From positions 14,436,213 through 14,500,212 of the forward strand of contig OZ234493.1 in assembly GCA_965153455.1 (NCBI GenBank): a DNA stretch of 64,000 nt. Reading direction: 5' to 3'. Position 1 is the stretch's first letter; the number at the start of each line of letters is the position of its first letter. This DNA is from Sphagnum compactum. Lineage: Eukaryota. Below are positions 1-64,000 of the stretch, piece by piece. The notes below the pieces were generated by a model. It searched no databases. It saw only the letters and a list, made by a program, of their open reading frames with translations, and was not told the origin of the DNA. Both the position numbers and the translations under genes were made by a program.

Positions 1-1289
1 CACCTAGTCATTATGGAAATTGCTTAAATGTTTTCAACAAATTATAAATTACATATATTATTGCAATTACATGTAAAGTTTTACCTTGGGATTGGTGTTC
101 AAATGTCAACCTACAATCATGACAAAACATTTCCAAAAGTTTGGGTCCATTATTCAATTGCTCCATTGGAATGTTTCCTTAACAACATCCATATTTGTAA
201 AAGAGGTACACACAATATGTATCCATGCAAAAACCATGTAAATGAGCGTGTAAACTATTTGATTTTACAACCCCATGACTAATTTGAAATAAATACATTC
301 TTTTCAATTGAATTATTAATACATAAAAAAATGATCATACTTATCAAAAGATAATATTTGAAGATTATTGCAAAGGGTCTTATATTGATAAAAACATATT
401 GATAATTCTGTCAATGGTGATTCACATCTAGTGCAATTGTAAAGTATTTCTTTCAATCATTTTCCAATTATAGAATAAAAAACTTCTTGTAAGCATGGCA
501 ATAATCATACACCTCATTATAATATGAAAAAAATCATATGTTAGACACAATTTTGGAAATTATATTATAAAACTTGAAGCAAAAGTTAACTTCTATCGTG
601 GGGTTATGAATTCAAGCAATATTAAATCAACATTTAAAATTGAAACATAACTAGATCAACTCAAATCGTATTTTAATGTCAAAGTATTTTATATAGAGTT
701 TTTTGGGGATAACTTGGTTTAACACATCATTTTTCACTAGGGAAAATATATCAATGTGGTAAAAGATCATCTCCATTGTGTAATGGTTAAATGACATTTT
801 ATCATATCCAAACAAGCCATCAACATGTACTTGGCCCTAACATTTTATGTTTCCCCCATTGTTTGAGTTGACCCTAGATTCAATATGTTGTTTTCCTCAA
901 AACATTTGTTCCCTCCAAGTGCACTTTCCTTCCAAAACTACGTGACAAACTTTATTTTGATTTTCATTGCACACCTCTTTCAATGTTTTGCTTGCAACTT
1001 TCTATGGACTTTGGCTTGCACTCCTACACTTTGCTTACACTTCTTTTAATAATTTGCAATATGTAATCTGTAAAGAAGTTTACTTGTGCACCAATGTGGA
1101 TTGGTGATTGCTTTATGTTTGTAGGATGTTTTATCTTTTGATTTTCACTTGTGCACCTTTGTGAATCATTGAAAAGCTTGAGTAACAATAATGAAAACTA
1201 GTTCAAATCTAACACCAAGGGAGTAAAAAAATGGAATTAATGTAGGTGAATTGTATCATTTCTTCTTTAGTGGTGCAACTTTTATAACT

Positions 1290-1625
1290 TTGATGCATAC
1301 ATCAGCCCAATGTAGGATCTCAAAACCAAATTACAATGAATAAAGGTAAATTTTTTCCATTGGTCAAGGATATTTTTTCTTATAAAGTTCTAGCCCCTTT
1401 TGTACGATTTTTTTGTCGTTTGCACTTGATCCTAGAAAGTTTTGATTGCTCCAAAGTCCCCTATGAATTTTGAAACATCATGTTTTATTATTCCTCATTT
1501 GGCTCCAAAGACTTCACCAATTTGTATGCATCACAAGCTGGGTGGTTATTGTTTTAGTGTTCACAAATCTTCTCCCAAAATGTGTTGCAGTTTTAGCCAT
1601 TTCCTATGATTGAACCTTGCAAGAT
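1290..1625 (-). mobile_element. Decayed PIF/Harbinger-type Myb/SANT-like (NAM-associated) ORF remnant
   Basis: Minus-strand translation through stops and frameshifts gives QGSIIGNG*NCNTFWEKICEH...KSLE..GIIKHDVSKFIG...GLELYKKK...FTFIHC. This matches the 'IIGNGQ..FW..I....SL..KW..I...VSKF.G' pattern of Harbinger ORF1-like proteins. Confidence 0.6.
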
Positions 1626-4600
1626 GTGGAAAAATGAGCCCAAAAAAAACGTTCTTCCTTGAGGGAAAAAAATTTCCCCTTTTGCTTGTTTGTTGAAGTT
1701 TCAAATGCTCATGTTGTTACCATGGGTCATATTCACAAAATTCATTGACATACCCAAAAAAAATTTGATTTGGCAAGTTCAAATTTCGTTATGGTATCTT
1801 GATGCATTGGAGCCTACAACAATGATTTTGTTTTTCTCAATTTTGTGTTATTCAAGTGGCAATCATCCATAAATATATTTAACCAAATTTGGAATATTCA
1901 AAATACAAAAGTAAAAAATCTTATGCACCCTTTCATATTTTAAACAATTGTGATGATTTTTGGCAATTTCTTAATTTTGAGTTTTGGCCAAAATAATTGT
2001 AACCAAGGAATTTGTGACAAAATATGTTTTGCAAAATGGCAAAAATTCACCACAACAAAAATCCTTGGGCTGCAGATACATTTGTTTTAGCCTTAACAAT
2101 ACTTATTTTGGATGGATGCAATGGTGGGGATGGTCATGTGCACAAAACAAGTGTGAGTCTTGCAAATTGCCCATTGGAAGGTTATTTGTAATGAACGGTG
2201 GGATGGTCACACCAAAATAAATTTACTTAAAAAATTAAGTGTTATTTATACCACATGGAAAGAAAGTCTCTAGTTGTTAATGCCATCTCACTATTGGTAA
2301 TATCTTCAATTTTTTGAGTTCTTGGAGAAATAGGCATGGCACATTTGAGAAGCAAAGATGCAAAACAAAGCTTTGATTTCTTTGACAAACTACAAGTTGG
2401 TAGTTTAACAAAACATGGAGTGAAATGTGCATTCATTTCCCTTTTTGGCAACCCCCCCTCCAAGGTTTTTCCTTCATACCTTCATTGTTTTCCAAGATTT
2501 GTCTCATCTTGTATTTGTATTAATGATGGAACATTGGTGATTATGAGCGTTTCATTGAAATTGAAAACTTTTTTATGATTATGGTTTTGAATGTACTAAT
2601 CATCCATGGGTCTTTTAGATATTAAATGGTCATGAATATTTTTGCACATAAAATATCAAAGTCTTTTGTTATCGTTTATTACAAATTTATTTGGAACACA
2701 ATGCATATATGTAAACTAATAAACCATGGAAATATACTTCAATATTTTTGACATGTTGAAAAAATGCAGATAGAAATGTGCACAATCATGGAGTCGGCAT
2801 CACAAGGTTTGGTTGATTGGGCGCTTTTCCATGTTCATGTGTCAAATAAGTTGCATCCAAATCGCACTGAACATTTCATTCGAACAACATTTGACTCTTT
2901 TTGTGGAAAAAGTATGCCACATGACATTTTTTTCATTCTTGTTACATGCTTGAAACTATAAAATATTATCAACACTTCAAAATGCTTTCAATCAATGAGA
3001 AAAATAGCTTTACTATGCATTCTTATATTTTATTTCATGATTTATACATGAACAAAATATTGATATTAACATATAAAGTTTGTGATGCCACTATTTGGAA
3101 TAATGCACTAAAACATGGGTTGGAAATTTTGTAGGCATGCCCAAAAGGGAGTTCTTGACATCACAATCATTTCTTAAAGTTTTACAAAAACAAGCCCCTT
3201 TGCTCAATCAACGACGAGCTAAAGAGGCATTTTTAGAACTTGATTCTATTGGTGAAGGTTTTGTAACATTTTTTGATTTTGCAGCAGCCATGCGATCTGA
3301 TGTCCCATAATTGTGTTCCATTTCAAACGTAATCAAAAGATTAATCAATTGAAGAAAAAACTTACAAAGATTGACCTAAGACCTTTTCATGTTCAAATTT
3401 GTGAATATAATTATACCTTTTGGAGAAGTATAAAATTATCTTAATCAATGATTCACAAAACTACCCTTGATTCTCCAAACCAAAGATGCACCAATATTTT
3501 GGTTCAAATTGTCAACATTCTTCTTGATGTATCAGGGGATACATTGTTTAAAATTTATTATTATGGTCATAGAATCAACCAACAAACCTCAAGAAAATGG
3601 GGAATGTTGGTAACATCCAAATGGGGTTAGTTATAATCATATGATCATAAATATTGTTGGTTTTTGTTTCTTGTGTAATGATCATTTTCACCCTTTGAAA
3701 TTGTCGAGCTTATTCACAAGCAAAAAAATCTTCCTATTTCATTGTATTTAAATTGTAAATGACACAAATTTGTTTCTCTACTAAAGTGTACTTATTGAAT
3801 TTTAATGAAACTAATTGGCACCCAACAAACAAAAGTTCATTAAACAACGTTAATCCAATAATTCCTCTCCTAGATAGAAAATGATCTATTTGAATTTGTT
3901 TAGTTTATTACTTTTACAAATAATCATATATAAAGGGATTAAGTTTTTGGCTTAAATGAAACATGTGCTTCACAAAAATCAATTTGTAATACCAAATTGT
4001 GATATGAATCATGTTAGTTTGGAAATTTGAAATGAAAAATGCATGTATAATTGACACATCAAGTATGTTAAATGGTGTCTAAAACCAAGAAGTTAAATGA
4101 CATTCATCACCAAGTTTTAAGCCTACATTTGTGTCATGAACCCTAAATTTGAATATGATTTATATTTTTTTCTAAATATTAATGCTTATCATTTTCCCAT
4201 GTGTTGTTGTTGTACAACTTTACTTAAATTCAATTATTGCCATCAATGTTACAAGTATAAAATGCACCAAGTTTACCATCTCTTTACATGAAAAAAAAAT
4301 TTTTGAACTTGTTATGGAATAATGAAAGTCTCAAAATGGACATAACAATAATGACCAATCCATGGGCCTATCTTAGTGTCAAGTTTGTTTCATAAGTTTG
4401 ATGTTTTAAATGCAAGGTCAGTGTCGTTGGCAAATGTCCATAATAAGGGGTAAACCCTAAGAATTATAGGTTAATCAATTATTTAGAAATCAAACTAAGA
4501 AGATAAACATAAAAGGGACATAGTAACATTTGAGACAAAAACATTTGATGGATTGTTTAAAATAATTCATTGTTACATATGTGCCTACCAATTCATGCCA

Positions 4601-22826: not shown

Positions 22827-25518
22827 TCACACTTCAAGCTGAGAATTTTGCATTTGGTTTGACACTGAATCTTCATTGGCACTCACAACTGTGGTTGCTC
22901 CAGCTGCAGAGGATGGACTCTCCAATACGGCTTGATTCTGGACATTTGGCTCACTACCTTGTAACTCACTGGGAGTCAAGCCTTGTGTATGTCTGTAGGC
23001 ATCTCCACCTCTGGGTGAAGAGACAGACTCAGAACCTTCAGCCAGATTGCAGAGAGATGACCTTGTCATGGCGGGAGTTGCTGAGAGTTTCAACAATGGG
23101 TTTTTATGACTGCTGGTTAGTCTGCTTGCGCAATTCTCAAACTCCTCCTCTCTGTTGATGATATGGTGCCCACAAGGCAGCACCCAGTGATTGCCACATG
23201 AACCCTGAGGACTCCTCCTACATGGAGACATTGGCCTCCGAGAAGCTCCAAGTTGAATCCATGTCCTTGATGACATCCAGGAATTGCACTGACCTACGGC
23301 ACTTAAACATGAAGCATTATGTTCCCTCATGGCAGCATTGTCGAGTTCCATTGGTATGACTTGATTTGTTGATGGGGATGATGCATTCTCCAACTTGCAT
23401 TCCCGAAAGGGCATCTCAAATTCTACTTCATTGCCATCAGATGTGAGGGGGTTTGGAAGGGGCTTGTGCAATGCAAAGAAACCTGCAGGGGGTTCAGTGA
23501 TTGCAGTTTCCATGCCCAGGACTTGGGCACTGTGAGCTTCAACTGTAGCTCCCTCCCTTTCAAGCTTTGTCAGTTTTGAGCACATTGCTTTGTCTTCACC
23601 CTGAGAGAGGCCCCTGTAAACTCTTCGAGCAGAAACCCCAGGTCTGGGTCGCTGCTGAGTGCTGACCATGTTTCTTTGCACCACCCTCGTGAAACCATTG
23701 AATGTTGAGAACGAGATTTTCCTACTGATTTCCTTGAGTTCCTCAACAACATCAGACATGTGTGGAGGGTTTTCACGAGATGAACGCACACATTTGATGG
23801 CCAGGTTTATCAGCTGCTTGAGTGGCTTGAAACTTACAGGAAGACTCAACTTCTTGTCACACACCTCAACATAGGCACCTTGACTTACAAGGGGCAACAC
23901 CCAATCTAAAATGCTGGGGGGTTCACAGGCCAAGTCAATTGCATGCCGTCCACTAACAATTTCAAAAAGCAGAATCCCAAAACTGAACACATCAGTTTTG
24001 GTGCTCAAGTCTGAAGGGGTCTCATACTCAGGGTCTAGATAACCCATGGTACCTGCAGGGGGTGTCGATGTCTTGAGCACATCTTCAATGTGGCCACGAA
24101 GAGCGAGGCCAAAATCCCCAAGTTTGGCATTCCACTTCTCATCAATCATCACATTCGAGGATTTGATGTCACGGTGGATGACTGGAGGGGATGCTGAATG
24201 GAGTCTCAGTATTCCTTTGGCTGTTTGCAATGCTAACTGGATGCGCATAAACCAGTTAATAGGTGGGATGCTGTTATGAAGACTGTCATGTAGTGTTCCA
24301 TTGGCCATGAACTCCACCACCAGGATCTTCTCAATCGAATCACAACTATACCCCAACAGGTTCACCACATGATCACCTCCTCCAAGCTTTGACAATATCT
24401 CAAGTTCATTGTCAAAAGAAGTCTCGTCTTGCAGGAGCTGCCGAGCATAAGTCGGTCGCTTCACTGCAACAAGCTTGCCATTCTGTAGGACACCCTTATA
24501 TACACATCCATGACTGCCCTTACCTAACAATCTCTCTGCTGCGAACCCCCTTGTTGCCTTCTCCAAATCCTTCACACAAACACACAAAACCCCAAAAATT
24601 CAATCAGCAAAGAAAAGAAAAAAAACCCATCCACCAAAACCAAATGGTGTGTGCAGTGTGCACCACCCTCTACATGATGACACATTTGTAGATAGATAGA
24701 TAGTCCACTGCATCTCCAAGCTGCTGGTCTCATTAGTACATCAAGTAGTAACTGATCTCAAATACAAGAGACCTTCTCAATTATTTCACAAAAGGAAGCA
24801 TGTGGATGTGGACTTAATCTGTCAGGGTTCTAAAAATCCAATGGCAAATCCAGTTACTCACAGTGTGCTGTGATCACAGCAACCTAATGGAAAGCTACTG
24901 ACAAAGGGCCTTGTTTCTTGCTGCAAGTGTGGTGAAAATACGTAATTAATCATATTATGAGCTCTGGGAACACACTGTGTTCTCATGATTTTTTAGTATA
25001 GATGTCATTTTATAGTGAGTCACAGTTTGACTCGAAGTTCTCACAGCTCCTGCAATTGGCCAATGCTTGACTTGTAGAGCTATGAGATGACTGTGAGGAC
25101 AACTAGTTGGAAAAACATAATGGAAAGCTACTGTGATCACAGAATCCGTGTTTACAGCAGCCTAATGGATAGATGTCCTGTCAGATGGAAAACTGCCAAC
25201 TACTTTCTCCTGAGTATTCATTCTTCGAACAACTGAGCAAGAAGTGGAATGAGAGAGACAGACAAACACACATACAGAGTCTATTGGTGATCTGCAGTAA
25301 CGTGGTGTTGGTAGAGAGCATAAAAGATCTAGTGGGAACATTGGGCTTGCACAGAGACAAGGGTGAAGAAATGGATGCCAACAAATTGAGGAAAAAAGAA
25401 AGGTTTTTACCTCATACTTGAAGATTCGTGGGTGTGCAGGTCTGTGTCGCTTGTGCTTCAGGTGTGCATTTTCGCGTGTCCCTGTTGCAGCTTCTGTCCG
25501 ACATGACAAATACCCCAT
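22827..25518 (-). CDS. Receptor-like cytoplasmic Ser/Thr protein kinase (At1g28390/At3g51990-like), 2 exons, about 616 aa
   Basis: Exon 1 25518-25411 (MGYLSC...RIFKYE|GT) and exon 2 24569-22827 (AG|DLEKAT...) join in phase 0 to give the canonical FKYEDLEKAT. Kinase motifs are intact: GKGSHG, VAVK, HRDIKSSN, DFG, GTMGYLDPEY, DVFSFG. No signal peptide or transmembrane segment is apparent. Confidence 0.93.
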
Positions 25519-55326: not shown

Positions 55327-58284
55327 ATGGATGCTCAAGTTGAAGGTGGTGAAGACAAGGCATTCGAGCAGTTTGTCGATGACCATTTTGCAGGACAAAA
55401 TAAAGGAAATAGTAAAGGAGGGAAGAAGGTGGGAAGGGAAACTCATGGCCCTGTATGTGTTTCCTTTGAGGGTAATATTGGTGTTGGCAAATCTACCATC
55501 CTCAAATTGCTTCATTCACATCCTCGTCTCCACCAGTATGTTTCTTCTTCACTCTGTCTCATTTGGGCCTACACACATTTATTGAATGCTATTTCTTCTT
55601 CCCAGTGAGTAGCTTTCACAAGAAAATCTCAATCTCTGTACCATTTTTTCTTGTTCACAACATGCATATGTGTTCTAGCTTGTGCTTTAGGTTGGTTGAT
55701 GCAGAGGCCCATGTGAGGATTCAGGGGTCTTTCCTTGGAAGGGTGTGCTAACTATGCTTGTAAAGAATGATGTTCTGCTAGGTCCATCCCACATAATGTG
55801 GTTCAATGCCAATTTTCTTCAAAGATCTACTAGAGTTGATCATGCATCTGGGTGTTGAACTTCTCAGCGCTTTACTGCCACGTTCCATTCTAATGTAGCC
55901 TAGGTTGTTAATGGACAATTGTATGTAGCTCTCTTTGAGTATATCAAGAATTGGGAAACATCTCTTCTCTCATGTAAAAAGTATCTGAAAGATGAGAAAG
56001 ATGAGGACTTACTGACATGTAGAAAGAACAGGACATAGCAGTGCCGATCCCAAATTCCTGAATGAGAACACTGGCATGTGGTTCCTTTTGGTTGTTTACA
56101 GGTTTCTGATACTAAATCTTGGGTTGCACAGTCTAAGATGAGAGTTGCTAATATTCTTGCTATATGGCTATTTTCATGCAGTATCTCAGAGGTATTGCAA
56201 GAACCAATTGGACAGTGGCAAAATGTGAATGGAACAGGTCTCAACATGCTTGAAGCTTTCTACAAAGATCCACACAGGTCCATAACCAAATCTTCTGATT
56301 GTAGTCCTACCATAGCATGTCTTCAAGCTGTTAATGCCTAGCTCCTGGAGATATGGAGTAGAGTATAGTGGTCTGGGAATTGGGTTCAGTAGGGCAGGAC
56401 TGAATGACTGGGCCAGTAGTGCTTGTGATCCTGGGTGGCTCTCACAACAAAGGTAGGTACTTAAAATAAATTTTGCATGCAAGAGAAGGGATTTGGCTGC
56501 TTTTTGAACAGAAGACTCTTCATCCTTTAATGGTTGCATCTTAGACCCCATTGGTGTAAAAACAGTGCGGGTCCAACTGAACTGAGAAGATTGTTCACAT
56601 TGCACATGGGTTTGTGCACCCAGTTTACTGTTATCTCTTTGTGCCCGGTGGGAGAGGCCTGCCAAGTTAGCCTAGGCATCCAGCCTTGCAGTGGTTGCAT
56701 CAATTGTAGGAAGTTTGGGCTCTTTAAGTTTGTAACTAGTGGTGGGTAGTGTGTTGCAGATACGCGTACTTGTTTCAAAGTTTTGTGTTCACCACAAGAT
56801 TTCTTCAGCAAAATGCTGCAGCTTCGACATCAAAGGCTGCTTTTCTGCTGACGGAGCGCTCAGTGTTGACAGACCGTTGCGTATTTGTGGAAACAGGGAA
56901 AGATCAAGGCTATCTCAATGCGCTCGAGGTTGCTGCATATGAAGCATGGTACCATGGTGTTGTGGCAGCCCTGCCTAATGTGGTACATGTCCTTCTTGCC
57001 CTTGTACCTATTATTATGTGCTTTCTCTTGCATGAAAGGGTAGTTGCTTGTTTCTTCTTTCTGTGTAGACATTCTTTCTTTGACTGTGAAAATCTCTTTC
57101 CTTGCTTTCCAAATAGTACGTCCTGATGAGAGAGCTTACCATGCAGAGGAAATAATCAAGTGTTGTGTGCTCATGTTGGACTGTTGGTATGCTCCCATTT
57201 GTCTGGTTGACATGTTCATGAACGTGTCTCTGTGTGAAATGCCCAAGCATGCATTGTTGAATCCAATTGTTGTATTGTTGCTGATGCAGGTGCCTGATGC
57301 TTTTGTATATCTACGAGCTGATCCTGTAGTGTGCTATGACCGGTTGAAAGCACGGTGCTCTCACAAATTTATCCTCTAAAATTATTAAAGTAGCAATGAT
57401 CATGAATATACTTATTGATTTTCTTGTTCATCATCATAGTTGCCAATTTCTTGGGACTGGAACACCTGAGGCTTTTGTTTTTGCATAAAATAGAAATGAT
57501 TTATTTTCTATATGGCAGTGCAAGGTCTGAGGAAGCAGGCGTCAGTCTTGATTACCTCAAATCTATTCATGAGAAGCATGAAAAGTGGTTCATAGAGGGT
57601 GCATTCGAGAATCCAGGTAACAGTGGAGCAATTTCCTTTGTCTTTAGTTCCATTCAGATGCACTTTGATGTCCTTTGTAAACCTTTTACTTCATCTGAAG
57701 TGATTTTGCCTCAAGTGTCTATATGGACTTCTCTATGTCCTATATAGTTGCTGTTAGTAACAGGGGAGTTGATGAAGCTTGAGGTCCAAAGTAAAGACAC
57801 ATTCAAGCTATTGCCAGTACAGAGCTTGGTGTCAGGACTGTCCAGGTGATCATTCCTCCTAATTAAGTGTGTCCTCTTAGGCGGCTGCGATTAGAACCAG
57901 CAAGAAGACTTTACTCCCTTGGATCTTGTACAGTATGAATCCTTTTTCCCTTGTGCAAGCGTGGTTTGTGTACCAGACAACCATATAAACTTCAAGAGTA
58001 ACACATCAGAGGCAACAGAATCCAGCATTCAGTTGCTTTGGCCAGCTGCACCCCCGGCAGGTTCAGGGTTTGAGAGTTGAAAAGTTTGGCCCTGTTATGC
58101 AGGTGACTCAGGAACCCAGTTGCGCGAGGGCCATATTATGTCCACCTCAGGAGCACCGTCAGTAATTCATGGCTGTCCTGTCTTTGTGCTGGACTGCAGT
58201 GCCGACCTGCACTTTGGAAGGCCGTCAAAAGAGTGTGATGCTGTTATTGATCAGGTTGTAGATTTCTTGCTCCGTCCTGCTTGA
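55327..58284 (+). CDS. dNK: Deoxynucleoside kinase (dCK/dGK/dNK family), 6 exons, about 290 aa
   Basis: Exons 55327-55535, 56182-56277, 56760-56982, 57290-57354, 57519-57616 and 58103-58284, all GT-AG and phase-compatible (873 nt). Motifs: P-loop EGNIGVGKST, EPIGQW, FYKDPHRYAYLFQ, ERSVLTDR, PDAFVYLRADP, lid RLKARARSEE, LDYLKSIHEKHEKW. Confidence 0.92.
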
Positions 58285-61102
58285 AAACAAAAGTAGCCAC
58301 TGACTCCAAACTGTATGTATGGAAGGGAAAAATAGCTCAAATGGAGCTTATCCTTAATCTGGCTGTAATTTATGAAACAATCAGTTGCTGTTTTCCATTG
58401 TGCAGGGTCTAATACATGGGACTCAACAGGTTAGACAGCAGTTGTAATTGCAAACAAAGTTGAAGCCTGCAAACCCAGCCTCTGCATCACAAGACTATAA
58501 CAATGGATCAGAGGAGGGCCTTCAAAAGTTGGTCCTTGTATGGTTTCCTTTGGATGGTGGCTCTTAATTTTGTGAACTCCGATTGGTGTTTTTGTTGTTG
58601 TTGATGAACCACAATGGAGAGAGTCAATGTGACTGGGTTATGTATTGGTTGAATCGGTCTGCAAAGCTGGAAACATCAGTCATGGAGATCATGCATGTGT
58701 CCAAAATTGAGAAACATGTGAAGACAGGAGGAGAATGAAGAGCTTTGGATGACAGGTCTTTGTTTTGATTGCTTTTATCTTGGTTTTCTGTTGTTTTCTC
58801 TACTGTAGGTATTTGTGCACTTCACCTGCACAGCAAAATGCATGCTTTGTATCTCCTTAATGATAATTAATTGTCCATCCACAAGAGAGAGACAGATTTG
58901 CACTCTTTGCATTCCTTAAAAGGGTGGGAATACCAGAATGTGTGAAATGTCCAAATGAAGACATTGTGTGCTTAATTTGCAGACCAGAGTGCAGCTAAGA
59001 GCATGAATTGTACAAGTATGCAAGCATGAGGAACTTGGGTGTGAAGACAATAACAGGTTTAGGACCTAGAGCAGTAGCACCATCAAAATGGGCTTTGAAA
59101 GATGGTGGGGATGCTGGTGGTTTGCCTGCTGTTAATGCAACAGTTAGCATATGGTAAACTAAGATGCACTTCTCAAATGTAGTACTGGGGGTTGTGTAGT
59201 AAAGCACTAATAAGGTTATTGTTCTCCAACTATGATATCACACAGACATGTGCAGGAAAGGATGCTGATCCCAAAAGTTTTTTTCTTGAACAAGCCTGAA
59301 ATATTGCATGAACCTTGCAGTAAAGGCACATTGCAAGACCAAGGGAAACCTCCCATTGATGCTGAGGTGAGGGGAAGATAAGGTATTTTGCAAACTGTGG
59401 CTGCTACAGCAACCCCAGGCAGGAATGTGACTAGAGTCCTCAGATGTTGTCGGAACACCTCTGAAGCAGAATGTCTCAGCAGGTATTGTAGTAACAGGTT
59501 CTTGCACTGCATGAGGTGCACCTTCAAGTTCTTCTGGTGGGAAATTAGTGCAGACATCAATTATGCAGTAGCCCTGGCAGCATTGGCCAGAGTAGCAGTT
59601 TGAGCTTGTGGAGGATCCCACTTTTTGGAGAGATCATAATGTGCACGGGGGTCACATGTGGTCTTGGTACATTCTTATCGGTAATTGCAAATATGGAAGA
59701 AATGCTTTTGACTGTTGTTTCTCCAAGCCTTGATGCCTATCTTCTTTAGCATATGCTGTGTTTATCAGATTCTTGGATGGATTTGGGTTTCTTTCTCAGG
59801 TCATGATCCAGTTGCAACCAATCAACAGCTCAGAATGGTTGATTCAGGGGTTCACTAGGTGTGTAAAGCAAGAAAGTGCGCACAGAATCAGCTTGTGAGG
59901 ACAACCTGAGTCAAGGTTCACATTTCACTGTATTGCTGGTGAACTTTTTTCTCAGGCGCAATTTTGAGACTCAGGCTTGTTCTTCAAGCTTTGAATGTGT
60001 GTCTCTGCATAGAGGTTAATCTGCATGTGTGCTGACAGAAAAAATCTGTTGATTGCAAGAAAAGCTTTTCAAGGTGGCAGATTGCCTAAGGTTGAGAATT
60101 GCATAGGCTGGGTACAACAGCTGTATGTTTTGCAGGTTAGCCAATGAAGACAATTTATCTGTTCTTGACTTTGTATGCAACTTTCATCTGCAGGAAATTG
60201 TGTGCATGATTGTGCAAGTGTGAGAAGTGTAGTGCAAGGATCATAAATGTGGTGGTTTTGTAAGAGGGTCGTGGCAAGATGGCAATGGAAAAACATGTAC
60301 AATGCTTGGAGACATCATTGACCATGACTGCAGGCTGGGTGAGAATCAGGGCATGACTCCACAAGTTTTTGAGCTTTGCTGAACTCTGCTTGGTATGGAT
60401 TAGGAGATAGATGGCCATATGCAAAGCAAAAGTTGCTCCTCCCACAATGGATTCCTATTTGGGATTATTATTTGCCTTTTTCTAGCTCAAAAAATCTCAA
60501 CAATTCCTTGCTTGTTTGCAAACCAAATGTTGGTTGTGTTTTCCATATATAAGGTTCTTTTTTCCAATCTTGGCTTGCTGGTCCCCATTGTACACATGCC
60601 AATGCCAAATTTTACAAAATTTGCTACTTTTATCAACTTTTTAAGATATGCACTCCCTGGCTAACTTAAAATTTGTAACTTTTCTTGGTTCTTGACACTA
60701 GTATGAAGGTCCCTAAGTGCACACATGTGATCATTTACCCCTCCAAAGCAGACATTAATTAGTGAACATAATTTTGAGCATTTATTTTGGGTGTTTTTAT
60801 CTTAGTGATTTGAACCTAACTAATGTCAGGCATATCAGTAAAATTCACGTGTTGGACTTGATATACTCCATTTCACTAATCATTTCAATTTGTTTCTAGC
60901 CCAGGGTGACCTCATACAAGTATGGCACTTCAAATGCTTTGTTACAGTTCAGGAACAGCTTGAATTTAGAAAATGGTTCTCTTGTTGGAAAAACAAAATG
61001 TTTACAATACAGCTGTTGTTTACATATTGCTATCAATCTAGTCTTACGCGCTTTGGCATGGGTTCTATTTCTTCCTGCTCTGTGCTCTCAACCACATGAG
61101 TT

Positions 61103-62389
61103 CTATTTCTTCCTGCTCTCCACCTGTAGTTTCCAATTCGTATCCTTCTCCAACCTACTTGGGTCAAAGGCATAGAAAATTGGTGGGTCTTCTTCACGTT
61201 GTACACGTGATAATGATCTCCCTTGACCATTAAAGTTATTGAACCGATCTTCAGCTGATTGTGAACTCAACAAATTTTGAATGTCTCCTGCAATATCATC
61301 ATGCAACAACTTGTGATCCAAGGACATGTTGATGTCAACTCCGGATATATCAATCACCTGAATGGGCCGTGTGAATCTGCTGAACTCTCCACGGTTTTTC
61401 ATCTGCACAAGGCTTTGGGTGTCTACCAATTCATTTTGCTCATCCGACCTCTTTAATAAAAAGAGCTTTCGGTCAGCAGCTGATGAGTAAATTGTGAAAA
61501 GTATTGATAATTGTCGCCTCCACCTCCCATCACACATGCCGTTAAGGTCCATGTGTTCAAATCTGGCCCTCATTGCATCAGGTGCCAAAAAAATGACATT
61601 TTTCAAAGCTCCTTTGACATCAAGTTGAACTATATTTTGCCTGTTGAAGCTATGGCTTGTATTTCCCTTGCCAGGGCTCGAGCTATCAGACTTTTGGAAA
61701 TTTTGCAATGCTTCAATTAGGGCACGATTCCCCATGTCGTGTGCAAGGATATGGACCTTTTTAACCTTCGTTACCTGTGCATAAGATTTCAAAACAATAA
61801 CTATGTGCTTCTTCTATCGCTTGCATGTCTTTTCAGTGGACATTCCATCATTTCTTGGAAGTGAATTTCAATAAACTTTACTCATGTTAGAACTTCGAGG
61901 CAACAATGGATTATACATTTACAATCAAGTAACAAATATCCACCGTTATTTGAGGTTGATACCATATTCCCAATGTTTGTGTAGGCTTCTTCTTTCTTTC
62001 ATTTTGTTGTCCTTACGCTTGACAATCTCTTGACAAACAAATTGAACACATTTGTTCTATTGACAGACATTACCCTAGTAGGCTGACATTACAGACTACA
62101 GTTATTCTGGACTTATCTACAATGTGTAGAATATGGTTGGGTCTGTAATTCATACCTCAGTTAAAAGGATTGTGATAAATTGATGAAGCCAGGGGGCTGA
62201 TTCCTCAATGACCTTTTCATCATGTTTGTAGCCCCACAATGTCCCATTGGAAGGCCAACTGTATACAATTACAAGGCCTTTGAACTTCAGAGAATGTTTG
62301 AGTTGTGCTGCTTGCTTGATGGCATCTTTATGGTTTACATTGTACCCATGAATGTACAACAATACTTCTCGAGCAGATTCCTCCTGCAT
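61103..62389 (-). CDS. DUF900-type alpha/beta hydrolase, at least 2 exons, about 301 aa from the visible ATG
   Basis: Exon 62389-62156 (REVLLYIHGYNV...AAQL...VYSWPSNG...Y..D) is spliced GT-AG in phase 0 to exon 61774-61103 (VHILAHDMGNR...VIFLAPD...TIYSSAADR...IDISGVD...DH). The motif series is typical of DUF900 esterase-like proteins. The true N-terminus is uncertain. Confidence 0.85.
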
Positions 62390-64000
62390 TCAAAGATCAA
62401 CCTGTACATTAATTAATTAAAAAAAGAAAGTGTTGAACTCTTCCTTCCCCAATAAATATGGTTGACTTCAGTTTAAAACTATTTAAACACAAGTTCAAGC
62501 TTGAGCATGACATGTCTACATAGTCTTATGGTTTTCTTCAAGTTTCTATAGAGAATAATTTATCAAATAGTGACAGTGATTTGTGAAACTGTCAACCATT
62601 CAAGTGAAACTTAGTAGTAACTAGTGTGGCCTGTGTAATTGGCCCAAGTGTTAACTAGTTACCCAACTAAAATTGAATTTGAATTTTGAATTTTTATTAA
62701 ATTTCCAATGACAAAGGTTACTAAAAAATCAACATCTCTTGCACCTCAGGTTTTGAAAATTATGAAATCAACATCAATACAAAATCCCACTCATTGAGGG
62801 CTTTCCAATAGTAGCAAAAGCACTCCCCAAGTTCCCTAACATGCTTAGTTTTAATCTTATTGAATTTTCAATGAGAAACCCTTGCACCTTAGGTCTAAAC
62901 CAATCTTGGCCAGTTACCCGGGTGGACTTGGTTATCCAAGCTCGGTTTTGGTTTGATTTTAGAATCAAAATTGAGTTTTTTTTTAGAACCAGATGGAATT
63001 GAAACCTGATAAGGAGGGACTAGTTATGGAACTAGATTGGAATCGTACCTTGGTATTGGAATTGGACTCTGGGTTTCGGTCCAAACTCATTTGAGAATCA
63101 GAATCAGATCAAATTTTTTAAAAAAGTTCAATTTCAATTGTAGGGTTTAAAGAGTTTTTTGCTTTTTTTTTTGGGAGGAAGCTTACTTTTCTGTGACTGT
63201 CTTTTGTAATTTTTTTATTTTCGAAAATTATCATGTTAAAAGAAAGGTTGTGAGCTCCCAAATTGAGGTGCTTCAAATTTTGTTCAAAAATTTCACACTC
63301 AAGAAACAAGACAGCATTGGAGCTTGACTTCAAACTTTTTGGGGTTTGAAATAAGAGTTTTTTGGGGGCTGATCTAAGGTTTTTGGAGGGATTTGAAATA
63401 GAGTTTTTTTGAGATTTAAAATAAGGGAGAATTAAGGGTCCTCAAGGGTGGCAAGAGGTCAACCAAGATGGGTAGTTACAATTTTGAAAACCCTAAACAT
63501 GGAACCATATCTTTTGAAGACATTTACTGTAAATTAGGGTTTTGAAATATGTTATTTGTATTAATTGATTAAAAAAAATTGTATTCTAATTATTTTCCCT
63601 TAGAATAAAAGTTCAAGTTGTTTATTTTTCATATGTTGTTCATTTTCATATTTTGAATGTTGGAACCAAAATTGAAGGTTACCCAAAATTGAGGTTATTT
63701 GGTTAACAATAAAAATCAGTCTAACTTGAAAAAACAAACCAACCAAAACCGAAATGGCTCCCCTAATTAGAAGACCAAAACCAAAACTGAGTTTCACATT
63801 TGAAATTAAAAAAAACCTGAAACCAAACTAGACAATCCCTTCAAAAATGTTAAGAACAAGAACCCAAGGGGTCCCTCAGGACAGAGGAACTGGCCAACAC
63901 TGGTCTAAACATCACAAAACCACCTCAGTGCATACCTTTTCTAAGGGCTTTACCAGGAGCACTGTGGGGGCACAGTGATTTGGGAGCTCTCAACATGACA

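Follow-up and report, generated by a model that had tools for sequence, protein, structure and literature searches.

The window, by which we mean the whole 64-kb stretch of Sphagnum compactum DNA analyzed here, carries a single copy of a gene for a DUF900 (PF05990) protein, on the minus strand near the end of the stretch. Its coding sequence appears as two open pieces, 62389–62156 (translation P0001, 78 aa) and 61774–61103 (translation P0002, 223 aa), with 381 nt between them. The sequence-only reading had treated 61103–62389 as one unit; it is actually two exons and a 381-nt GT..AG intron (62155–61775). Matches to the DUF900 profile stop at position 88 on one side of the gap and resume at position 92 on the other, which is what a phase-0 intron would give, and a counterpart intron of 363–383 nt is present in all 7 related loci that contain both exons. 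The features of the locus are listed here, with positions as in the window.

62384–64000, minus strand: 3′ part of the preceding intron, by its match to the intron of loci L006, L008 and L010
62156–62383, minus strand: penultimate exon (exon 1), 76 codons, EESAREVLLYIHGYN...YSWPS...LLTE, with the oxyanion HG and SWPS motifs
61775–62155, minus strand: intron, 381 nt, GTATGAAT...CACAG, phase 0, GT..AG
61103–61774, minus strand: last exon (exon 2), 223 codons plus TAG, with AHDMG, LAPDA and SSAADRK; His block missing
61736–61738, minus strand: GAC, Asp at the nucleophile position, in HILAHDMGNR
About 61322–61328, minus strand: private 21-nt in-frame deletion between CATGTC direct repeats, from the nucleotide alignment
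61090–61120, minus strand: private 31-nt insertion, a partial tandem duplication, absent from all 7 aligned loci
61033–61089, minus strand: out-of-frame relic of the C-terminal tail of the relatives (ESTEQEEIEPMPKRVRLD, then stop); relatives end ...ESTEQEEIEAMPKRLRVD

Three related moss loci (L006, L008 and L010) have another coding exon some 1.7 kb 5′ of exon 1. This upstream exon is open in all three and is homologous to residues 157–244 of the Ser-type Sphagnum paralogue P0027; its end, ...LLAQ, borders on a GC donor (GCATGT). The collinear alignment of the window with the moss loci extends to base 64000, and in the sense of the gene the window starts about 75 nt past this donor. The acceptor of the preceding intron, ...TGAATGCAG, is kept in 6 of 7 aligned sequences (L008 has CCAG). 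While the junction CAG/GAG at 62384/62383 is conserved, the ATG at 62389 is not and reads ATC in L008; it is not the start of the gene. Annotated full-length Sphagnum proteins run ...LLAQ, EASAGEVLLYIHG...LLTE, VKEVKKVHILAHDMG, joining LLAQ to EASAGEV and LLTE to VKEV and so confirming both splice junctions. Additionally, a metatranscriptome contig from a relative contains the spliced junction in which LAQ is followed directly by EESDKFKREV. Because of the upstream exon in relatives, the conserved acceptor, the non-conserved ATG and the full-length junctions, we read the window as containing just the final two exons (62383–62156 and 61774–61103) of a longer nuclear moss gene whose 5′ exons lie beyond base 64000. 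The gene model is corrected accordingly: the edge of the window cuts through the gene.

Three other accounts of this structure were considered and rejected. An in-frame TGA before the ATG might have been a Trp-to-stop mutation; relatives have intron at the same place, however, and splicing in the full-length proteins skips it. Protein P0030 is an intron read-through call. A transposon-captured gene fragment does not fit a gene that is single-copy in the window, gives no self-hits and has relatives collinear over their full fetched length. Lastly, an N-terminally truncated protein of 300 aa, as in the annotation of P0007, is contradicted by the annotated full-length relatives. The G+C content of the window is 27–43%, and the two-exon structure of the locus is eukaryotic.

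The relatives encode proteins of about 730–790 aa, with annotated full-length ORFs of 728–787 aa in five Sphagnum species. At E ≤ 0.01, Pfam matches on these full-length proteins consist of DUF900 at roughly residues 430–706. The N-terminal residues 1 to ~430 (LLPRFYLLQALCDKLPILTSTYE...VDRFLVPYLQSQ...LRDYLPK in P0188–P0193) are common to Asp-, Asn- and Ser-type Sphagnum proteins. This region of ~430 aa had no Pfam or NCBIfam match, and its first 400 aa in P0188 gave no lead in the ESM Atlas. A PADLOC search returned no match, nor did a metagenome scan with a single protein query return anything. Two of the six proteins P0188–P0193 start with MGxxxT/S.

The minus-strand translation reads HILAHDMGNR with GAC at 61738–61736, and the motifs IHGYN, YSWPS, LAPDA and SSAADRK are all found in the two exon translations, just as the sequence-only reading had described the AHDMG elbow and the kept HGYN, SWPS, APD and SxxDR motifs. 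Against a Pfam cut-off of 20.5 bits for DUF900, the exon 1 piece scores 64.9 bits (profile positions 14–88) and the exon 2 piece 36.0 bits (positions 92–216); DUF900 was the one family reported for the window pieces at E ≤ 1. The only PDB sequence matches align AH-D-MG with the AHSMG elbow of a Bacillus lipase A (E = 4.4e-5), which places the Asp at the nucleophile position. The best of these, Bacillus subtilis lipase A (PDB 1i6w), is a minimal Ser lipase of 180 aa and is also among the best fold matches; the likeness is local at the elbow in sequence and generic in fold (TM 0.3–0.5).

Measured against the catalytic residues of DUF900, the window copy keeps the acid Asp (SxxDxxL, here SSAADRKL) and the oxyanion HG (here IHGYN). 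It lacks the Ser nucleophile, reading AHDMG in place of AHSMG, and it lacks the invariant His of the xHSY block, which is present in 103 of 103 aligned family members. The "late His" that had been pointed out in SLDHKL is a different residue from this family-invariant His and sits in an insertion specific to the relatives described below.

To place the elbow change, we searched proteins exhaustively with P0007 as query and obtained 5550 proteins at E ≤ 0.001. Among the best 150 of the representatives, 146 cover the elbow and 4 do not; the elbow residue is Ser in 143 (P0134 being poorly aligned), Gly in 1, Asp in 1 and Asn in 1. The sole Asp and the sole Asn both belong to a group of non-Ser proteins from Sphagnum, so that the remaining 144 covering representatives are Ser in 143 and Gly in 1, with Asp in 0 of 144. 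AHSMG is indeed the family norm, as the sequence-only reading had it. AHDMG is neither common nor found in print: a literature search for "AHDMG" returned an unrelated mosquito peptide paper only, and the main texts retrieved for DUF900, PF05990 or IPR010297 contained no description of the moss clade that we could find.

All relatives with a named source are from Sphagnum (S. balticum, S. compactum, S. troendelagicum, S. magellanicum, S. tenellum and S. jensenii), and the rest are from metagenomes; sequencing runs that share part of the window carry the label moss metagenome. Ten metagenome loci (L001–L010) are collinear with the window over their full fetched length, with flanks 92–94% identical, and are thus orthologues, homeologues or segmental duplicates rather than dispersed copies. 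An eleventh locus, L011, carries at 1148–3205 (plus strand) an uninterrupted 685-aa ORF for a canonical AHSMG (AGC) DUF900 protein on a G+C-rich metagenome contig that is evidently bacterial; ordinary bacterial DUF900 members therefore occur in the same habitat.

From the clade we examined the window copy, 10 loci and 24 proteins from databases, 35 rows in all, which reduce to 28 unique sequences after removal of 7 duplicates. The elbow residue in these is Asp in 21, Asn in 3, deleted in 1 and not covered in 3; the family His is retained in 26, replaced by Tyr in 1 (L003) and deleted in 1 (the window copy); and the acid position is Asp in 24, Glu in 1, Tyr in 2 and deleted in 1. The window copy thus shares its Asp with close homologues: among the 25 unique sequences in which the elbow is covered, 21 have it. 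We built two trees of 43 rows each from chosen subsets, from which duplicates and fragments were excluded, as were most of the 150 representatives. In the first, the Asp and Asn copies form one clade (support 100/100) on a long stem (0.90), nested among Sphagnum AHSMG paralogues. In the second, 27 of 27 non-Ser rows fall in a single Sphagnum-only group (100/99), in which P0193 (S. jensenii, AYNMG) is sister to the remaining non-Ser rows (97/96). The window copy lies inside the 100/99 group and shares the clade insertions and collinear flanks. Because all 27 non-Ser rows form one group among Ser paralogues, Ser was lost once. Taken together, the sequence comparisons indicate that the non-Ser DUF900 clade is confined to Sphagnum and derived by duplication from AHSMG Sphagnum paralogues. 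In S. troendelagicum, a Ser-type protein (P0032) and an Asp-type protein (P0191) may share a chromosome, since the longest contig given for each has 18,861,551 bases.

Canonical DUF900 proteins, including the Sphagnum AHSMG paralogues P0027 and P0030–P0034, are ~35–45% identical to the clade and have the HG, SWPS, A-H-x-M-G-N-R, APD and SxxD motifs in common with it, as well as the same exon layout and the N-terminal TDR...LHYG...IP region of the clade relatives. In contrast, the moss clade has Asp or Asn at the elbow and an acidic/KR tail; a Ser-rich segment is inserted behind the helix of the elbow, other loops also carry insertions, and the HxxGxxExP motif has been lost. The window copy additionally lacks the invariant His. 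All 5 Ser forms examined keep the N-terminal IPxxHxxGxxExP, and none of 3 clade loci does. The TDR... region is still present in the same 3 clade loci, and the loss is limited to the HxxGxxExP part; in the window copy the exon for this region falls beyond base 64000.

The codons at the elbow indicate how the change may have come about. The codon is GAC in the window and in 8 of the 10 paralogue loci, AAC in L006 and L008, and AGC (Ser) in the bacterial relative L011. Asn is found as AHNMG in L006, L008, P0015 and S. magellanicum P0192 (729 aa), and as AYNMG in P0193 (727 aa). The subclade of L006, L008, P0015 and P0192 is placed in the base of the clade, whose branching the tree does not fix: holding all Asp rows together costs 1.42 log-likelihood units and is not rejected (p-AU 0.377). 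Counted by hand, an Asn-first order takes 2 nucleotide steps (Asn subclade sister to Asp) or 3 (nested) and an Asp-first order takes 4, a parsimony count made without DNA of the Sphagnum Ser paralogues and with a long branch (0.92) to P0193. Parsimony therefore favors single steps from Ser to Asn and on to Asp, probably the path taken; if so, Asp would have arisen by one transition (AAC to GAC) after plain loss of the nucleophile. It had been argued that the two substitutions separating any Ser codon from GAC exclude decay. This argument fails because Asn is seen in a sister lineage and in a basal subclade, and one substitution each suffices to turn Ser(AGY) into Asn(AAC) and Asn(AAC) into Asp(GAC).

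To determine whether the clade is maintained as coding sequence, we analyzed nine loci together with the window (L004 is identical to L003 and L011 is bacterial, and both were left out). The body of exon 2 has taken ~319 substitutions on the tree with 0 stops seen against 13.3 expected (P = 1.7e-6). All 12 indels in exon 2 are multiples of three, in contrast to a single one among 6 in the intron and to 12 among 55 in the 3′ flank. The lack of stops and the in-frame indels show that the clade is maintained as coding sequence.

Constraint on the residues is weak even so. By Nei–Gojobori counts with bootstrap over codons, in which pairs are not independent, omega is 0.35 for exon 1 (CI 0.14–0.93), 1.23 for exon 2 (95% CI 0.90–1.75) and 1.62 for the window copy against the others (1.09–2.57). 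We also split exon 2 according to how conserved its positions are in 89 family members from outside the clade, so that variation in the clade itself did not enter the criterion. The family core (82 codons) gave an omega of 0.79 (0.41–1.62), and neither this value nor that for exon 2 as a whole differs significantly from 1 in either direction. The clade-specific insertions (51 codons) gave 2.71 (1.44–9.7), with values at or below 1 in 0.1% of bootstraps. Mean pairwise p over the window and 7 loci is 0.107 in exon 2, 0.057 in the intron and 0.036–0.062 in the 3′ flank, so that exon 2 has diverged about twice as much as the non-coding DNA around it. On these sequence measures, frame and fold are kept, the former active-site half is under almost no constraint, and the newly gained loops evolve fast. 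The outcome is mixed for the earlier claim: its dN/dS check came out near or above 1, which goes against it, whereas the presence of Asp in close homologues and the rarity of the variant speak for it.

These values bear on the possibility that all copies in the clade are pseudogenes, dead DNA with Asp as neutral filler. An exon 2 omega of ~1.2 would fit such a set, as would lesions in some copies (those of the window copy; His to Tyr and acceptor CAG to CAA in L003/L004; varied tails) and the 0 polyA RNA reads on the locus described below. However, the frame statistics for stops and indels, the exon 1 omega, the annotated 728–787-aa ORFs in five Sphagnum species and the spliced LAQ-EES junction in the contig from a relative all argue against it, and we regard a dead clade as very improbable.

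Two lesions are private to the window copy. The 21-nt deletion takes out xxQHSYxS, including the family-invariant His, and among the 28 unique clade sequences the window copy is the only one with the His block deleted. The 31-nt insertion is out of frame and brings in a TAG at 61105–61103 that cuts off the C-terminal tail. The tail itself, ...EQEEIEAMPKRLRVD (window 61033–61089; L001, L003, L005, L007, P0190), is missing from the Ser paralogues; it appears to resemble a short basic nuclear-localization signal. Because the Ser is replaced and the invariant His deleted, the protein predicted from the window copy cannot work by a nucleophile-His-acid mechanism.

Decay of the window copy and continued production of a useful protein from it are about equally likely. 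The window copy may alone be a pseudogene, an unexpressed decaying allele or duplicate whose relatives are functional, and we give this an even chance; it is compatible with the explanation that we favor for the clade. Decay is suggested by the pair of private lesions, of which one shifts the frame and brings a premature stop, as well as by the lone deletion of the His block and by the omega against the other copies, whose interval lies above 1. On the other side, the frame is open for 223 codons, the deletion is in frame, the splice sites are intact and C-terminal tails differ among other clade copies too. The open frame says little either way, since ~1.2 stops are expected on the short terminal branch of the window copy (0.043 × 669 sites × stop probability 0.042). 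In a polyA RNA run from the same species (X22), 0 reads fell on 60500–63500, a count that covers ~12% of the run and comes without a positive-control stretch. Contigs from X15 and X16, apparently the same data, cover only 62154–62386 and small pieces of 62781–62899, and cannot show expression of the window copy. The window copy is best read as a non-catalytic DUF900 variant, possibly in decay. In two metagenomes, L003 and L004 have an exon 2 acceptor changed from CAG to CAA near L003 position 774 together with His to Tyr (QYSY), and the near-identical L005 keeps both the acceptor CAG and the His. L003/L004 is probably a decaying allele in another sample.

Asp nucleophiles are well known within the α/β-hydrolase fold, in haloalkane dehalogenases, epoxide hydrolases and fluoroacetate dehalogenase, and enzymes of this type have the oxyanion motif HGxP. 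The moss clade resembles them in its elbow Asp, and its intact members likewise keep the His and the acid. The largely kept triad of elbow Asp, His and acid Asp could mean a working Asp-His-Asp site in those members. Beyond this there is no sequence relationship: DUF900 is the only family that Pfam reports, neither the window pieces nor the full-length relatives fall in the Pfam families of Asp-nucleophile hydrolases, the oxyanion motif is HGYN, and the moss Asp probably derives from Asn. Of the Asp elbow and catalytic His that mark dehalogenases and epoxide hydrolases, the window copy has the Asp, and the family-conserved His is deleted. An AlphaFold2 model of P0007 from a 103-row alignment has an α/β-hydrolase fold (mean pLDDT 80, pTM 0.84), with low confidence in the clade-specific insertion and the His loop; P0007 itself is without the elbow residue. 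Foldseek matched the model to generic α/β hydrolases only (TM 0.3–0.5).

The clade could be a set of active hydrolases with an Asp nucleophile and retained His and Asp, with the window copy as a null allele or paralogue. Its elbow, His and acid positions are mostly intact (Asp in 21 of 25 covering sequences, His in 26 of 28, acid Asp in 24 of 28), its reading frame is strongly maintained, and the elbow block is conserved and varies synonymously around a constant Asp. Nor is the variant drift within ordinary DUF900, since none of the covering representatives outside the clade has it. Yet Asn, which offers no possible nucleophile, occupies the elbow in intact relatives; the Asn-first order is more parsimonious; the core omega has a confidence interval that includes 1; the N-terminal His motif is lost; the oxyanion motif differs from HGxP; and the window copy has no His. 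We therefore consider active Asp enzymes improbable for the clade. An independent change of chemistry, one of the two outcomes first proposed for this locus, is unsupported for the window copy, which has no His, and weak for the clade, given Asn in intact relatives; new chemistry at the window locus itself is unlikely. The other proposed outcome, a catalytically dead pseudoenzyme, is supported, with both Ser and the invariant His gone from the window copy and a catalytic-half omega of ~1.

We consider it likely that this is a Sphagnum-only DUF900 clade in which Ser was lost once, to Asn and later to Asp, and which is maintained and probably non-catalytic, the window copy having also lost the His. 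Duplication of a canonical AHSMG paralogue in Sphagnum would have founded the clade. Ser would first have become Asn, a plain loss of the nucleophile, and Asn would have become Asp (AAC to GAC) later, in an already non-catalytic background. The gene would have stayed protein-coding throughout, with its ~430-aa N-terminal region of no known family followed by the DUF900 domain, and the DUF900 fold may be kept for binding or scaffolding rather than ester hydrolysis. A nearly unconstrained catalytic half together with fast surface loops fits retention of the fold for such a role. The window copy would then have deleted the invariant His and lost its C-terminal tail through the frameshifting insertion.

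Plants re-use this fold in EDS1/PAD4/SAG101 and GID1, non-enzymes or receptors in which it is kept for binding or signaling. Their likeness to the moss clade would be one of analogy in fold re-use. A bolder version of the history, in which a ~750-aa Sphagnum family went from Ser through Asn to Asp with its His, acid and reading frame intact, acquired positively selected loops and became either a re-armed Asp enzyme or a ligand sensor or receptor like other plant receptors of this fold, seems to us doubtful. If true, it would be a Sphagnum-specific innovation, possibly tied to moss chemistry or microbial partners.

Section 2.5.12 of one paper describes DUF900 as a bacterial family of unknown function (PMC11878206), and a passage in another reports a few brown-algal ROCO proteins with a C-terminal DUF900 domain (PMC11378527). 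In a preprint, cinquedea from Haloferax larsenii is described as a secreted bactericidal phospholipase, and 69% of its archaeal homologues match DUF900 (bioRxiv 10.64898/2026.06.10.730825). It was the one experimentally characterized DUF900-linked protein that we found. Cinquedea is archaeal, secreted and catalytically active, in contrast to the moss clade, which is without the Ser nucleophile; what the two have in common is the DUF900 link.

The clade offers a dated and traceable case of nucleophile change in an α/β-hydrolase family, which happened once and in one plant genus. Its probable Asn intermediate is alive in sister lineages, which allows direct comparison of Ser, Asn and Asp forms. 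The case also draws attention to a protein family that is confined to Sphagnum, an ecologically dominant group of plants, and that is maintained but evolves fast, and it cautions that Asp at the nucleophile elbow need not imply new chemistry.

Several neighboring features of the window were also recorded. Upstream of the acceptor in the sense of the gene, the intron at 62600–63900 is AT-rich and aligns poorly between loci, with an apparent p of 0.2–0.3 and many indels, unlike the well-conserved 250 nt directly before the acceptor. In the 3′ flank, 58600–60600 has a mean pairwise p of 0.036–0.046 among moss loci, compared with 0.057 in the intron, and could be UTR, a neighboring gene or conserved non-coding sequence. 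Farther downstream, plus-strand frames at 56740–57123 and 57406–57744 match successive positions of the deoxynucleoside kinase profile (dNK, PF01712; 40.5 and 24 bits) and look like exons of a neighboring gene downstream of the DUF900 gene. Lastly, the minus strand has at 22830–24599 an open frame of 590 aa with a kinase domain (PK_Tyr_Ser-Thr, 127 bits; Pkinase, 125 bits), probably a single large exon of a gene for a plant protein kinase.
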